From positions 62,001 to 126,000 of the forward strand of contig NW_022985708.1 of the NCBI RefSeq assembly GCF_902459465.1: a stretch of DNA of 64,000 nucleotides, in the 5' to 3' direction. Below the pieces are notes generated by a model, which worked only from the letters and a program-made list of their open reading frames with translations, was not told the DNA's origin and searched no databases. The stretch comes from Asterias rubens. Its lineage: Eukaryota. Position 1 is the stretch's first letter. Every line of letters begins with the position of its first letter. The translations under genes were made by a program, and so were the position numbers. Positions 9,096 through 16,713 of this stretch are shown here, piece by piece.

Positions 9096-9183
9096 GAAAG
9101 GACCACCGCTGCCGTTGGTTTTGGGAGTGGCGTACGCCACCCCACGTACGTGGGCCAAAACCAACGGCAGCGGTGGTCCTTTC
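9096..9183. repeat. T-shaped parvovirus-like terminal hairpin 1
   Basis: Perfect 29-bp stem (9096-9124/9155-9183) enclosing GA, arm GTGGCGTACGCCAC (9127-9140) and arm CCCACGTACGTGGG (9141-9154). Confidence 0.9.
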
Positions 9184-9547
9184 AAACTATTGCGTTGGAA
9201 TGATCAACAGGTTCATTATGTTTTAGAGTATCTGAACTAGTTTTAGGTCCAACAAATTTACTCATAGGCATATGTAATTTATCAGTTAAGAATTCTCTTG
9301 GTTCTTGTTTACTGTTATGACCAAAACTAATATCTTTATCTACTTTAAACCATTTATCTTTAGTAATGGCTTGTGGATTAGTATCAGCAGTCCTTTTATT
9401 AGCCCTTCGAGTAATTTTCTTGTCCCAATTTGGAAAAAATTTTCTATGTTCATTTGTCCAAGTATCCATGCGCTGTTTATTTTCTTCAATCTGTTTCTGT
9501 TTTTTAGTTCTAGTTGCGCAAAGTGTTGGTTGTGTACATCTATCCAT
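9182..9547 (-). CDS. Unassigned 121-aa basic ORF within the viral concatemer
   Basis: ATG-initiated ORF running into hairpin 1; no recognisable motif. Confidence 0.25.
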   Translation of the reverse strand: MDRCTQPTLCATRTKKQKQIEENKQRMDTWTNEHRKFFPNWDKKITRRANKRTADTNPQAITKDKWFKVDKDISFGHNSKQEPREFLTDKLHMPMSKFVGPKTSSDTLKHNEPVDHSNAIV

Positions 9548-10631
9548 TGTTGCTTATCTGCTTCTTTGGCATCTTCCTACAAATCAGAAATTTTCTGATT
9601 ATTGTCTTTAAGTACTTGTGCTTGATCTAATTGCATTGCTTTAATTTGTAATAGTACATCAAATAGTTCTAAAACTATGTAAAAATTCTTCATTCAATTT
9701 TTTTACTACGTTCTTGATAGGCTGTTAATCCCATAGTAGTAAAGAAATCGTCCCAAAAGTTTTTTTTCTGTGTGACAAGTAGAATAATTCACATCCGGGT
9801 ACTTTGCATTTATTCATAGTCACCTTTTTAAATACACCGGTTAGCGCGCCCTCATCGGCCGCAAGACGTCAGAGGGCCACTCTTTCCTTTGACGTCGGAG
9901 ACTGAACATCACATTATTTTCTCCGTCTTTAATTCAGGTAATTACCATTCTATTTTCCATCCATTCTCCCCTAGATTTCATTTAAATTCCTCTTGTATAA
10001 ATTATTCGTAGAGTTTAGGCTATTTTATGACATGTTTCTTTATGACAAGAGAACGGTTTTCTAGAGTTAATTTACTTAGTGTTTAGTCGGGAAAGGAAAC
10101 TCCCCTTATAGATATATTTCTTTTTGATTTGAATTTTCTCAAGTCTCCTCTCTTAGATTTTGTTTCTAGTTTTGCATTACTAGAGATCTAAAGTAATGCC
10201 GTACTTGTTTTCCGATTTAATGATGTAAATATTGCTGATTTTGCGGAGTTATCCTCTAATTTTGGTACAATTCCAAGATGGTGGACGTCATTAAACTTTT
10301 GGCGGGAACTTTAATTATATTATTTAGTTTGCCGTTATTTATGCTTTTCTGTTTGCCATCCATTTCCAATCTTTGGCAAATCGTTTATTATAGATAGTCT
10401 TTATCCAAGTTCACGGATTATTTCATTGATTTGTTTATTCTAAAATACATAATTTCTAGGCTGGAAAACAGCAACACTCTCGCGTCTGTTAAGGATTTCC
10501 TAATTAATTGTAAATAGTATTTGTGACTGTAAGTTTTATTCTAAATGTTTTATTTAAAGTATGTTTATTTAATTACACTCTTTCCTTTGACGTCGGAGAC
10601 TTAACACCACATTATTTTCTCCTTCTTCAAT

Positions 10632-11183
10632 TCAGATATAAATAAAAGTATGGAACAGCGAAGATTGTGTCCCGCAGGATCCTTTATTTAAGCCGATCAC
10701 ATCTGTTTTTGTTAGATCACATTTAGATTGGAAATCAAATGACATTCTATACATATCATATGCTTCTACTTTATGATTAGATTGACTATAAATGTTAATA
10801 TTATGTTTGACTCTTTTTGCTTCTAGTTCTTCAATTGCAGTACCTTGTGCAGTTAACGATGCCAATGTAAATTTATCTTTGTCTAGAAAGCATTGATGTT
10901 TTTTCCTATCTAAATCATAAATTAAAATATGTTTTGTGACTTGTAACATAGCAAAAAATGCAAGTCTACTATTGCAGTCATCGTAACAATCGTTCAGCGT
11001 TAGAAAATCTTTATAATCTTCCCAGTTGTTATAATCGGCAAATTCTTCTTTAGCTTGTATAACCAACGGCGAGAAATCAATATTTAGTTGTCTTTGATTT
11101 CTGACTAACGCTGTTCCGATTTTTCCAAATTCTTTCGCCCACGGTTCCACATCTTCTTCCGTTTTGATAGATCTTTTTGTCAT
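10632..11183 (-). CDS. ORF X (183 aa), unknown protein occupying the NS1 position in unit 2
   Basis: ATG lies ~20 nt after an AAGGTA motif, as do the NS1 ATGs at 12854 and ~13270. No HUH or helicase motifs. Confidence 0.5.
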   Translation of the reverse strand: MTKRSIKTEEDVEPWAKEFGKIGTALVRNQRQLNIDFSPLVIQAKEEFADYNNWEDYKDFLTLNDCYDDCNSRLAFFAMLQVTKHILIYDLDRKKHQCFLDKDKFTLASLTAQGTAIEELEAKRVKHNINIYSQSNHKVEAYDMYRMSFDFQSKCDLTKTDVIGLNKGSCGTQSSLFHTFIYI

Positions 11184-11358
11184 AGTGTTGCCGTACCTTT
11201 AATATATTTTCCTGGTTCTTCTTATAGATTCTTCTTTTTTTATACTTCCGTTCCTTCCAAATTCTCTGATACGTTTTCTTGTACGTCTTTGGCACTTTGT
11301 TCTTTTGATTTCTGTCCTGTTAATAACAATATTGAATACTAAATTTTGTGTAATTCTT

Positions 11359-14088: not shown

Positions 14089-14155
14089 GTTAGGTTGTTA
14101 TCTTCTTAATAAGAAAGGACCACCGTTGCTGTTATTTTTAAACCATTTACTAGCT

Positions 14156-14258
14156 ATGTCTGTATCTGACTGGCCAACGTACGACGGCCCAAGTGAATTC
14201 AGTGATCGAATGGCCTCATATTTGACTGAATATGAATCTCGTGGCCTTAAGATGTCTG
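14156..14258 (+). pseudogene. Inverted ~100-bp duplicate of the NS1 N-terminal region
   Basis: Reverse-complement match to ~16450-16547; reads SVSDWPTYDGPSEFSDRMASYLTEYESRGLKMS on the + strand. Confidence 0.8.
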
Positions 14259-14636
14259 GTTTCTCTGATCTTTTTAATTCAAAGAAAGGAATATTATCCC
14301 CATCATCTATCATTTGTTCATATTCTTCCATCTTTGGTTCATCTTCGCTCTCATAGTTAACTTCTGGTTTGTTTAACGTGTATCTTACCCTTTTTGGGGA
14401 TACAAGTTCAACTTCTTCTACCATCTCTACTTCTTCTTGTGCGTGTATTACATCATCGTTTGCTTCTTGGAATGTTTGTAGTTTTTGATTGAAATTCCCT
14501 TTTCTTTTTAGGGGTGATTCATCAGACATGTCAACTTCTTCTTCGTATCGCATGCACCTGCAAGTATCGAACTCACAGGTGCTTTTGTCGTGAGCATCTG
14601 TTTCAACAATGTGATTCCAGTGATTGAGTGCCTCTT

Positions 14637-16680
14637 TCAATGTGAATTTTTGTCCATAATGTCTTTCACAAGTGCTCCCATTAATACTTTCCCTCTTTCA
14701 CTATAGTCGTAATCTCTGACACCTACAGTCTTAACAATTAAGTCTACCATACTGTTAATCTGACCATGGATTGCTTTCTCTTCATGTTTGTCTACTGTCT
14801 TAGTTATTCCATCAATTAACTTCTCATAGCAACCTGGATGTAAATCGGCCGATTTGTCTTGCCATGGTAATTGGTCCCATTCTATTCTTGACCATTTGTG
14901 TACATCACATCTGTTATCGAGTGCTTCCCTGTTCATAGAATTCATGACATGTTTCCATGGCATGTGGTTGTTCGTTAGTATGCAAGGTACCCGTCCAATT
15001 CTGCTTGCTCCCGCGAATTTTACAGCCACTTCGGCATTTTCGCCTCCAAGTAACTCTTTCATTTTTTTCGACATTTGATCGGTTATGAGTAGTTCGTTGA
15101 ACAAGCACCAACGCTTTCCCTTCATTGACATGAATTGAAAGATATTGGAGTCTGATTGGCAACCCCCTCCAATGATTGCATGGTTTTGGCATGCTCGTTG
15201 GAGGGGGCGAATGATCCATGATTTACCGGCATTTGACGGTCCATAGATACAGTTGGAGTTTTTTTTCTTGTTTGTTGTGCCTTTGTTGAACACATTGTGT
15301 ATCTTATCTACCCATTGTGTTACATCTTCTCTCTGTTTTTTCAGAAAGTGTGTCATTGCTTTGATTGAGTCTTTTTTACTCAGTATCTGAGTACTTGATG
15401 ACTCGTCGTATCGTGCATTTGTACCATACCGATTTTCATAGGTGGCAATGTATTCATTCAAAGTTTTTTTATAGTCAATACTTTTATAATGCTTGGCTGC
15501 ATTGTCCCATACTGATTTTGCCATTTGTGGATTTACTGTGGCCCGGTGCAGCAGCTTATGGTCGGGGTCTTCTAAGTATGCCATATGTGCCATTAACTCA
15601 GGAATGTTATCCATGTTAGTTTCTCTATATTTACACATCAATTTGTAAAACAAATTAAACCTTTGTTCTGATACAGTTGGTTTTTTGCCTGTGTCAAATT
15701 TAGCTTCTTGTGAAGTTATATTTACACTTGTTCGTTTTGTTTCTCTTTCTTCCTGTTTACTCATCATCAATTCCATGAATGAAATGATTGAACTAACTCT
15801 TATCCAAGCTTCAAGGATTCCATCGAGATCATTTACCATATAACCTATGTTACCTTCTTGTTTCATTGTGTCTCTCTTATAGACGTCGTCAAGGTTAACT
15901 ACTATCCATCTAGGCGGACATAATATGTACTGTAGTGCTCGACTGCCACTAGCCATTGTTTTGGCTTCTACGTTGATGTTTATATTCTTACGATAATTTC
16001 TATATCTATAAGTATTCAACAGATCTCCTGAATTTTTTCGTACCCATAGTACTACATGTAAATGTATATCCTCTTTGTTTTCTCTCTTAGTACACGCTGA
16101 TGGCCCCATATTACATATTCTTGTGTACCCTGTCATTTGTGTCTTTTCTGGTTCTTCTACAACTTTTGGTGCTTCCCCTAGTATGTTCTTAATTCTTCCG
16201 CAGTCAAATTCTGGGTCTCCAAATGCGTCAATGACTAGTAGTGAGTCTACGGTTGGATCATGAAGTGTGCATACGTATCCTACATTGCTATCTAGCCCTT
16301 GTAAGTATTCTCGTGTTGCTTTAATTACATCTCCGATAGTTTAATCTTCATTACCTTTACTTACTACCATACCAGTAAAACTGTGTTGGGAACATATGTC
16401 TTTTTTCGACTGGTACTGACGACCAAATCTCTCCCCACTGTAAATTTCAGACATCTTAGGCCACGAGATTCATATTCAGTCAAATATGAGGCCATTCGAT
16501 CACTGAATTCACTTGGGCCGTCGTACGTTGGCCAGTCAGATACAGACGATCCCTTACTTACATTAAATACAGTATCACGATGTATGTTTTCAATACCACG
16601 GAAACTACCTCTACTGATATTTGGTGTTATCCCTTCTACTAACTTTCTAGAAAGTTTAGTGCCTTTGAGATTTGTTCCAT
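14637..16680 (-). pseudogene. NS1: Parvoviral NS1/Rep (HUH endonuclease + SF3 helicase); 499-aa open part at 14637-16136
   Basis: HUH motif EDIHLHVVLW, candidate catalytic Tyr in ALQYIL, Walker A IYGPSNAGKS, Walker B WCLFNE, motif C ILTNN. The upstream extension has one TAA (~16344) and a 1-bp deletion (~16458), and is fused to a hairpin arm at 16681. Confidence 0.9.
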
Positions 16681-16713
16681 TACGTGGGGGTGGCGTACGC
16701 CACTACCACAACC
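16681..16713. repeat. Hairpin remnant 4
   Basis: TACGTGGG-G-GTGGCGTACGCCAC-TA-CCACAACC: half an arm, a full arm and the start of the stem. Confidence 0.75.

Follow-up and report, generated by a model that had tools for sequence, protein, structure and literature searches.

We found that, in a 64,000-nucleotide stretch of Asterias rubens DNA (hereafter the window), positions 8461–16825 hold an ~8 kb element, single-copy in the A. rubens genome, in which truncated pieces of four or more related parvovirus genotypes follow one another on the same strand. Its integrated, chimeric and truncated state, the occurrence of hairpin centres in both flip and flop form and the later insertion of an LTR are all demonstrated. 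The element is probably a single integrated chain of pieces from at least four parvoviruses. Its hairpin-headed pieces were likely linked when replication switched templates in a co-infected germline cell, and the chain would then have become an inert fossil; one unit, U3, most likely keeps a natural NS1-less layout. Metagenomic contigs and endogenous elements seldom preserve parvovirus termini. At this locus, termini of an unclassified sea-star clade are intact, and four or more related viruses are shown to have come together at a single germline site.

Results

The element extends on both sides past 9096–16713, the interval in which an earlier note on this DNA had placed an integrated concatemer of parvovirus-like genomes; its full extent, a nested solo LTR and the hairpin HP6 were all absent from that note. 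Since each unit is truncated, the element is not a concatemer of whole genomes. Units U4, U2b, U2a and U1 all lie on the minus strand. U4 (8461–9095), the left end of genotype 1, adjoins a host satellite-like repeat and ends short of the NS1 start codon; it contains inner terminal motifs, a TATA-like box, a leader exon and the small, hydrophobic ORF A (8884–8588), and matches 13405–13988 at 67% and the left ends of NS1-bearing copies on C15 at 75–80%. U2b (12078–13240) carries ORF A (13233–13012), the leader and the 5' part of NS1 (12854–12111), and breaks just past the HLH motif. U2a (13241–13964), the left end of another genotype, contains an ORF A interrupted by a stop, a few opening NS1 codons and a secondary fold-back at 13896–13986. 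Junction debris follows at 14092–14258, comprising an inner terminal motif with a partial stem (14092–14139) and an inverted copy, at 14158–14258, of NS1 16448–16547, with a complementary core of 90/90. U1 (14245–16684) is an NS1 without its start and last part and with frame breaks, in which the HLH motif and the SF3 Walker A sequence GPSNAGKS are recognizable.

The SF3 NS1 described earlier was borne out, as NS1 passes the Pfam Parvo_NS1 model (33.9 bits, cut-off 20). The predicted structure of an NS1 relative (P0001) matched B19 NS1 (Z 12.0, rmsd 4.3, 222 residues aligned) as well as AAV Rep SF3. Residues 133–331 of the same model matched the circovirus Rep nuclease at Z 7.3–7.5, tied with generic ferredoxin folds. 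The HLH motif is kept in 9/9 aligned rows covering that site, and the candidate motif III of NS1 reads YxxxP, unlike the canonical HUH motif III, YxxxK.

The hairpins reported earlier are real, with fold z values of −13 to −20 for the three long stems. HP1 (9096–9183) is T-shaped, with a 29/29 stem (DNA fold z −13.3) and arms A, B on the plus strand. HP3 (13965–14092), also T-shaped, has a 45/45 stem (z −20.1) and its arms in the order B, A, which is flop relative to HP1. HP2 (11812–11934), which heads U3, is a long-stem hairpin with altered arms and a 43/44 core (z −15.4), and is unlike HP1 and HP3 in both stem and arms. An inverted T-terminus remnant on the plus strand (11935–12050, hairpin remnant 11941–11996) retains arms B, A, a partial stem and the inner motif (inverted matches I19 and I25), and is 91% identical to the reverse complement of 9110–9164; it probably represents the inverted terminal repeat from the right-hand side of a molecule with an internal deletion. 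Another plus-strand remnant of a T-hairpin (16681–16714), fused to NS1, has half of arm B, arm A and a short stem, and matches 11957–11990 at 97%. HP6 (16741–16823; z −8.8, inverted match I18) is unbranched with an arm-A-like tip, and its outer part is similar to the HP2 stem. It adjoins a host repeat; HP6 is unique to the locus, whereas the sequence from 16826 on is repeated.

Arm A (GTGGCGTACGCCAC) has six matches at ≤2 mismatches against 0.05 expected, while arm B has only three (9141, 11951 and 14014) against 0.03 expected, being degenerate in HP2 and half present at 16681. The claim that five termini share both arms was thus overstated. The HP3 centre agrees with HP1 at 28/30 positions as reverse complement and at 3/30 directly, and both hairpins head left ends of the same orientation, which upholds flip/flop as geometry; because their stems and left ends differ (60–67%), however, HP1 and HP3 represent two viruses and not alternate forms of one terminus. 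In the sister lineage on C78, flip and flop forms occur with identical stems. A genome-wide search for the arms, suggested in the earlier note, confined the pair, across an assembly of 417.6 Mb, to this one locus. Outside C38, the element's scaffold, a lone match was found for each arm, neither within a long-stemmed hairpin; considered as termini, these single-arm matches (C15:11915486 and C18:3365638) are palindromes that stand alone, lacking long stems, and were treated as chance. No such termini were present at the other same-lineage loci examined. The conservation of the 14-nt arms and ACCGTTG-type inner repeats across diverged stems points to these sequences as likely origin signals.

Four of the six placeable joins carry a hairpin or terminal motif (U4/U3, U3/U2b, U2a/U1 and U1/host), and the other two do not (U2a/U2b and U4/host). 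The left ends are 47–75% identical across units, the ORF A copies 42–69%, and the NS1 of U1 and U2b 60–66% (dS 2.2–3.7, dN 0.31–0.35, dN/dS ~0.1). Despite this divergence among genotypes, pairing is near-intact in all three long stems and in the 90/90 inverted duplication. Taken together, the divergence is old and the joining young.

A host solo LTR of 931 bp (9771–10701), with TG...CA ends and the 4-bp target duplication TCTG, was inserted into U3. It has more than 30 further genomic sites, mostly 93–97% identical, several as pairs ~8 kb apart. Host repeats flank the element on either side. The left host junction is crossed by an X1 contig (8419–8644; possibly the source sample), the right one by an X3 contig from an independent study (15675–16894) that also spans HP6, and HP1 is bridged by an X4 contig (8970–9521). 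The nested LTR with its target duplication and these junction-crossing contigs uphold the earlier statement that the element is integrated. X1 contig depths, a rough guide, are 144–187 over all unique units. Contigs of X3 cover 26/30 bins of the element and those of X4 22/30, with no single contig across the whole array. Unique cover by X8 contigs consisted of a few short, shallow pieces. C38 also contains a 9.4-kb near-identical duplication, and an empty site was sought in its 49-kb-offset duplication, which stops at 6736, before the element.

The earlier note had found no capsid, which proved incorrect. The N-terminus of VP1 lies at 9547–9184, and copies of the same lineage on C15 and C24 are one-piece, with NS1 followed by VP1; the gene order in relatives is NS1–ORF Z–VP1, and NS1 comes first in all other copies examined. 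The C24 VP1 homologue clears the Pfam Phospholip_A2_4 model (24.9 bits against a cut-off of 23.9). VP1 has a glycine tract and weak matches to parvoviral VPs, mostly via that tract; a structure predicted for it reached only pLDDT 28, too low to show a capsid fold, and the window has no jelly-roll region. VP1 is also annotated in starfish parvo-like viruses, in the passages available of their description (10.1101/166488). Units of the sister lineage on C78 measure 7805–7881 bp from hairpin to hairpin. At that unit length they exceed the Parvoviridae genome range, given in the passages of one source as ~4–6 kb with the largest reported at ~6.4 kb (PMC13426907).

The nearest named NS1 is that of a starfish parvo-like virus (44% over 89% of the query, E 8e-141; 10.1101/166488). 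In a quick SF3 tree of 157/173 sequences, mostly unnamed rows and without ICTV exemplars, the window and the starfish parvo-like viruses formed one clade (SH-aLRT 95–99); a 15-row clade (SH-aLRT 99, stem 0.49) stood apart from rows in clusters that bear the names Hamaparvovirinae sp. (P0049) and Myzus persicae densovirus (P0038). Within it, the window groups with the C15 and C24 copies (66–73%) as a sister branch to the starfish parvo-like viruses. Calling the lineage undescribed was therefore too strong, because that sister lineage is already published (10.1101/166488), though no described termini were found for the lineage. Scans of viral and metagenome contigs, sensitive to close relatives only, confirmed no free relatives of the window lineage. 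A literature search, limited in subscription journals, returned no endogenous parvoviral hairpin array, tandem ITR or piRNA-cluster concatemer of such kind, and on starfish parvo-like, Millport and Caledonia viruses only Waldron et al.

U3 differs from the other units in layout, with an ordinary left end, then ORF Y in the slot of the NS1 start, ORF Z and VP1, and no NS1 upstream of VP1. Its minus-strand left end (11184–11811, ORF A 11577–11359) is the most divergent genotype and is colinear with the other left ends at 47–54%. ORF Y (10702–11183, minus strand), with 160 open codons, begins at the position used for the NS1 start in other units; its ATG lies 176 bp past ORF A, compared with 158 bp for the U2b NS1 ATG, in a similar context. 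This open length was reached in 0/20000 shuffles. Residues 13–86 resemble the VP1 unique region (22.8 bits; best of 1000 shuffles 10.4), and the ORF Y end resembles the ORF Z start. The ORF Z-like remainder (9577–9770, minus strand) consists of short pieces with breaks, two of which scored 15.8 and 13.5 bits against the ORF Z profile (maximum in 1000 shuffles, 8.5). The VP1 stub (9184–9547, minus strand) includes the first half of the PLA2 domain, HP1 cutting before the HD catalytic pair, so that U3 is broken off inside VP1 at its 3' end. The stub is 45–47% identical to VP1 N-termini on C15 and C24 (E down to 4e-17) and by itself has no Pfam match. Profile and alignment comparisons of ORF Y with NS1 gave no match (alignment probability 0.07), two protein searches found no ORF Y homologue at E≤1, Atlas matches were all below 0.9, and matches elsewhere in the genome were limited to the LTR overlap. 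The VP1-like part of ORF Y is 26% identical to lineage-B VP1 (19/72; sister lineage 39%) and the U3 stub 62% (20/32; sister lineage 53%), over 72 and 32 alignment columns only. As the stub is close and ORF Y distant, ORF Y has the look of a long-diverged paralogue and not of a displaced piece: judged from its sequence, a divergent duplicate of the VP1 unique region that has become fused with ORF Z.

Discussion

The chain may have begun with co-infection of one germline cell by related parvoviruses. Template switching at terminal hairpins during rolling-hairpin replication likely joined the pieces, before or during an integration in which NS1 may have played a role; the chain would then have been inherited as an inert fossil, with the LTR inserted later. 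Continuity is judged from contigs, not raw reads, and one-step and sequential integration fit alike. U3 most likely had a natural layout of capsid-type genes with no NS1 at its left end. With capsid-type genes in place of NS1, U3 may derive from a separate genome segment, and its replication would have depended in trans on the NS1 of a co-infecting virus. The earlier description of the genomes as defective fits every NS1-bearing unit; its other option, segmented genomes, is kept because U3 lacks NS1, a point missed at the time.

Much of the earlier interpretation stood, namely an integrated parvovirus-like element of a marine-invertebrate lineage with rolling-hairpin termini in both orientations. 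Its alternative, a capsid-less hairpin-ended transposon or replicon, would account for the HUH-type motif, the SF3 helicase, the hairpins and the lack of a jelly-roll region in the window, but is largely refuted by the VP1/PLA2 stub, by VP1 after NS1 in sister copies and by paired arms at a single locus with no dispersed family seen; we regard it as very improbable. An assembly artefact, or contaminating free viral DNA, might be suspected on an unplaced, repeat-rich 220-kb scaffold with a near-identical duplication, yet the nested host LTR with its target duplication, junctions bridged by contigs of three studies and the X1 depths across all unique units (as a rough guide) leave it hardly any weight. 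Somewhat less remote, though improbable, is a model in which NS1 bound and nicked the terminus that had integrated first, and later infections added same-strand left ends there, a record thus kept current from which antisense piRNAs could be made. Units of different genotypes do share a strand, contig cover is partial (X4 shows a loose end of 255 letters at 13690), AAV Rep acts at a chromosomal site and AAVS1 complexes were among the structure matches, and related starfish elements yield antisense 5'U piRNA-like reads, according to the passages available (10.1101/166488). Against this landing site, all three long stems have escaped decay to about the same degree, gaps in contig cover carry no proof, and the same-lineage loci examined lack such termini.

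For U3 itself, a natural NS1-less segment or satellite is our leading reading, at somewhat under an even chance. It is less likely, though by no means remote, that U3 is a unique defective molecule produced by scrambling, where a foreign VP1 piece sits in frame between the NS1 start codon and ORF Z, leaving no natural NS1-less genome in the array. The remainder of the array is heavily rearranged, the VP1-like part of ORF Y begins ~30 residues past the stub end, and ORF Y lacks a homologue in either protein search or in the genome beyond the LTR overlap; but such an origin requires that two joins fall in frame, one of them where translation starts, and that the donor lie farther off than the sister lineage, and no NS1-like codons follow the ATG. 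Slightly less likely again is that U3 came from the 5' side of an unsegmented virus whose genes stand in a shuffled order, NS1 lying beyond the break. Truncation within VP1 would allow it, and Swazi bat megaparvovirus 1 has a PLA2 gene and an unknown gene ahead of NS1, in the passages available (PMC13426907), but VP1 of ~3 kb plus NS1 of ~2.5 kb would imply a genome of ~8 kb or more, and NS1 leads in every other copy examined. Returning to the natural segment or satellite, its fullest form is more tentative: U3 would be a fossil NS1-less capsid-encoding segment or satellite from a sea-star parvovirus clade with oversized (~7.8 kb) one-piece members, a second independent origin of genome splitting, with the NS1 slot taken by a duplicated VP1-unique-region gene and the whole trapped alongside its helpers in a germline chimera. 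If so, U3 would be the second split parvovirus genome in the literature found, and with 7.8-kb one-piece relatives in the host, the idea that segmentation relieves a capsid size limit becomes testable. If not, the locus is still an unusually well-preserved, AAV-like scrambled integration in an invertebrate germline.

The AAV ITR is a T-shaped hairpin with two palindromic arms in flip or flop order, and AAV integrants show truncated termini, inversions and deletions. The window differs in its hairpins of 88–128 nt with 14-nt arms, in being a natural germline integration in an invertebrate, and in joining pieces of several virus species where AAV integrants derive from one. Sea star densoviruses and their endogenous elements share the same kind of host and endogenous NS1 pieces (PMC7737747). 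SSaDV, of 6,053 nt with 260-nt ITRs, is placed with ambidensoviruses, and the endogenous copies are short NS1 helicase fragments without RCR motifs (PMC7737747), whereas the window lineage has all genes on one strand and its termini kept. The starfish parvo-like viruses resemble it in having NS1 and VP1 genes, and several are thought endogenous; their contigs are 5.8–6.5 kb, and the passages available give no termini, chimeric arrays or NS1-less units (10.1101/166488). Millport-like copies on C78 and C8 have long unbranched hairpins beside them, in contrast to the short T-hairpins of the window.

Acheta domesticus segmented densovirus (AdSDV) has T-shaped termini and a VP segment without NS1 that bears a separate VP1u-derived gene (PMC10267136). 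It is a Brevihamaparvovirus with 3.3-kb segments whose termini are identical on both (PMC10267136), whereas HP2 of U3 differs from HP1 and HP3; no NS1 unit in the array has a natural VP-less end or forms a matching VP-less NS segment, and the true partner of U3 may lie outside the array. The AdSDV VP1u-like gene comes from another subfamily and carries PLA2 (PMC10267136), unlike that of U3, which lacks PLA2, is similar to the VP1 of its own lineage and forms a fusion with ORF Z. With these differences, AdSDV offers a possible model for U3.

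Hairpins and limits of the element

Folding as DNA supported the earlier proposal of real hairpins in this region, with z-scores of −13.3 at 9096–9183 (HP1; stem 29/29), −15.4 at 11812–11934 (HP2; stem 43/44) and −20.1 at 13965–14092 (HP3; stem 45/45). None of 200 shuffles reached the stability of any of the three. The hairpin set and limits given in the earlier note were incomplete: a sixth hairpin, HP6, lies at 16741–16823 (z = −8.8), and the element spans 8461–16825. The 14-nt arms A and B of the T-shaped hairpins matched six and three times in the window (0.05 and 0.03 expected), and each pattern matched once outside the element locus in the whole 417.6-Mb assembly. 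No long-stemmed hairpin was found around either outside match.

HP1 and HP3 each head a left end, and both left ends point in the same direction. The 30-nt centre of HP3 matches that of HP1 at 28/30 positions as the reverse complement and at 3/30 directly. The geometry of the suggested flip/flop pair thus holds, but not its assignment to one terminus, since the two left ends are only 60–67% identical and therefore come from different viruses.

Anatomy of the array

Taken from its right-hand end on the minus strand, the array runs HP6, a T remnant, U1, an inverted NS1 duplication (90/90), a terminal fragment, HP3, U2a, U2b, an inverted terminus, HP2, U3, HP1 and U4, where U1 to U4 are truncated viral units. 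In U1, NS1 lacks both its start and its end, and its frame is broken in places. U2a comprises a left end that carries the small ORF A and a handful of NS1 codons. U2b retains ORF A together with the 5′ portion of NS1 and is followed by the inverted terminus, likely a right-hand ITR, whereas in U4 the left end breaks off short of NS1. Every unit bears at its left end ORF A (13233–13012, 11577–11359, 8884–8588 and 13700–13465), a short conserved protein with a single hydrophobic helix, for which a Pfam search returned no significant family. The left end of a sister lineage, the Millport-like starfish viruses, also has a small hydrophobic ORF of a similar kind.

Identity among the four left ends is 47–75%. 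NS1 of U1 and U2b share 60% identity over 97 codons and 66% over 82 codons (dS 2.2–3.7, dN 0.31–0.35), and the ORF A copies are 42–69% identical; purifying selection thus acted while the pieces diverged as viruses. This viral divergence long predates the fixation here of the nearly unmutated stems.

Integration in host DNA

The window occupies C38:62001–126000 on a scaffold of 220 kb. The segment 9771–10701 starts with TG, ends with CA, is flanked on both sides by a TCTG duplication and matches more than 30 other places in the genome, mostly at 93–97%, with several pairs ~8 kb apart. It is a solo LTR of host origin that entered the viral DNA. Its family is a young retrotransposon, with full elements of ~8 kb at several loci and LTRs 93–97% identical. 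The element borders a satellite-like repeat to the left of 8461 and a dispersed host repeat from 16826 onwards.

We compared contigs from four of the ten listed sequencing runs with the window. In the possible source sample (X1), one contig (8419–8644) bridges the left host junction and another (10666–12986) joins the right LTR edge with HP2; contig depths over unique units were 144–187. In a run from a different study (X3), a single contig (15675–16894) takes in NS1, both hairpins and 68 host bases, and another covers 11837–12863. In a third study (X4), a contig (8970–9521) bridges HP1. No contig of the four runs spans the whole array. Substitutions scattered between runs fit segregating alleles.

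Elsewhere in the window, inverted copies that match perfectly over at least 59 nt (17654–17712/18942–19000, ~1.2 kb apart) probably mark a small non-autonomous DNA transposon. Positions 1–6736 and 49043–55777 belong to a 9.4-kb duplication (99.8% identity, 49 kb apart), due either to recent segmental duplication or to a haplotype artefact.

Viral identity and capsid gene

NS1 of U1 passes Pfam Parvo_NS1. A model of the intact relative P0001 (mean pLDDT 64) matches the helicase domains of B19 NS1 and AAV Rep (Z 10.7–12.0); its N-terminal domain matches the circovirus Rep nuclease at Z 7.3–7.5, level with generic ferredoxin folds. A quick SF3 tree of 157 of 173 sequences, 16 being left out for too little of the domain and most rows outside the clade being unnamed, placed the window in one clade with its genome relatives, the starfish viruses and two unnamed proteins of full length, at SH-aLRT 99. 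At the level of the family, the element very likely derives from Parvoviridae. As to the lineage, the novelty first claimed is reduced by published contigs of starfish parvo-like viruses: Waldron et al. (10.1101/166488) describe antisense piRNA-like reads for most of these, and full NS1 and VP1 genes on two. Given these relatives, the host of the element is probably a sea star.

In the genome, 35 NS1 matches fall into two lineages. In the window-like copies (66–73%) found on contigs C15 and C24, the gene order is NS1, ORF Z (100–106 aa), VP1, and the VP1 N-terminus of the C24 copy passes the Pfam PLA2 cut-off. The window ORF at 9547–9184, which HP1 cuts before the HD pair, is 45–47% identical to the C15/C24 VP1 N-termini. 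By sequence, the window lineage is therefore predicted to be a capsid-encoding virus, contrary to the absence of a capsid reported earlier. Decayed copies of this lineage cluster towards the end of C15 (12.2–14.62 Mb), and two near-identical ones lie on C24 (170–176 kb and 638–641 kb); the C15/C24 copies are a candidate piRNA-cluster-like region. A different small hairpin lies immediately 3′ of VP1 at C24:170774–170848.

Among sister-lineage loci, a head-to-tail Millport-like array (C78:1983–52624; L026–L031) fills 50,605 of 52,624 contig bases, with four units of 7805–7881 bp from hairpin to hairpin alongside two deleted ones of ~4.55 kb. Its 276-nt hairpins occur in exact flip and flop forms on one and the same stem. 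Another copy (C8:2318652–2326400; L035–L036) adjoins a transposase-like ORF; its NS1 frame is open over 829 aa, its hairpin has a 57-bp stem, and its left end is duplicated in inverted form.

The unit lacking NS1

U3 is the one open surprise of the element. From the terminal motifs across ORF A and the leader, its left end can be aligned with those of the other units. At the NS1 start slot of U2a and U2b lies the ATG of ORF Y, which shows no resemblance to the NS1 profile and runs without a stop for 160 codons until the LTR (0/20,000 shuffles open that long). Its residues 13–86 score 22.8 bits on a VP1-unique-region profile (best of 1000 shuffles, 10.4). Its end scores a marginal 10.2 bits on the ORF Z profile, and two pieces past the LTR score 13.5 and 15.8 (best shuffle, 8.5), the three matches falling in order. 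Against C15 VP1, the stub of U3 itself matches at 20/32 positions (sister lineage, 17/32) and the VP1-like part of ORF Y at 19/72 (sister lineage, 28/72). With the stub closer and the ORF Y part more distant than the sister lineage, these few columns favour an apparent old duplicate rather than a freshly displaced fragment.

U3 may be a natural NS1-less segment or satellite, a reading we hold tentatively: the VP-only segment of AdSDV (PMC10267136) offers a precedent, but U3 is truncated, its hairpin is unlike those of the NS1 units, and protein, viral-contig and metagenome-contig searches found no free counterpart. A one-off scramble is rather unlikely, and a shuffled one-piece genome with NS1 downstream less likely still.

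Mechanism and comparison with known systems

By nicking and unfolding terminal hairpins, parvovirus NS1 generates flip and flop ends; molecules with deletions and inversions arise when the template is switched at the termini. Terminal motifs occur at four of the six placed joins, and the stretches between units hold an inverted duplication and short pieces of termini. Co-infecting viruses with common arm sequences were probably joined to one another and the joined DNA integrated in the germline, with LTR insertion and decay afterwards; sequential addition at a resident hairpin is a possible alternative.

In how it works, the element resembles a scrambled AAV-type integrant. The four C78 units of 7805–7881 bp exceed the ~6.4 kb given for the largest known parvovirus genome in PMC13426907, which also describes extra 5′ cassettes in another lineage. 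The sea-star EVEs described in PMC7737747 are short helicase fragments. The present element is genuine and goes beyond an ordinary EVE, and is less novel than first claimed as to lineage and lack of capsid.
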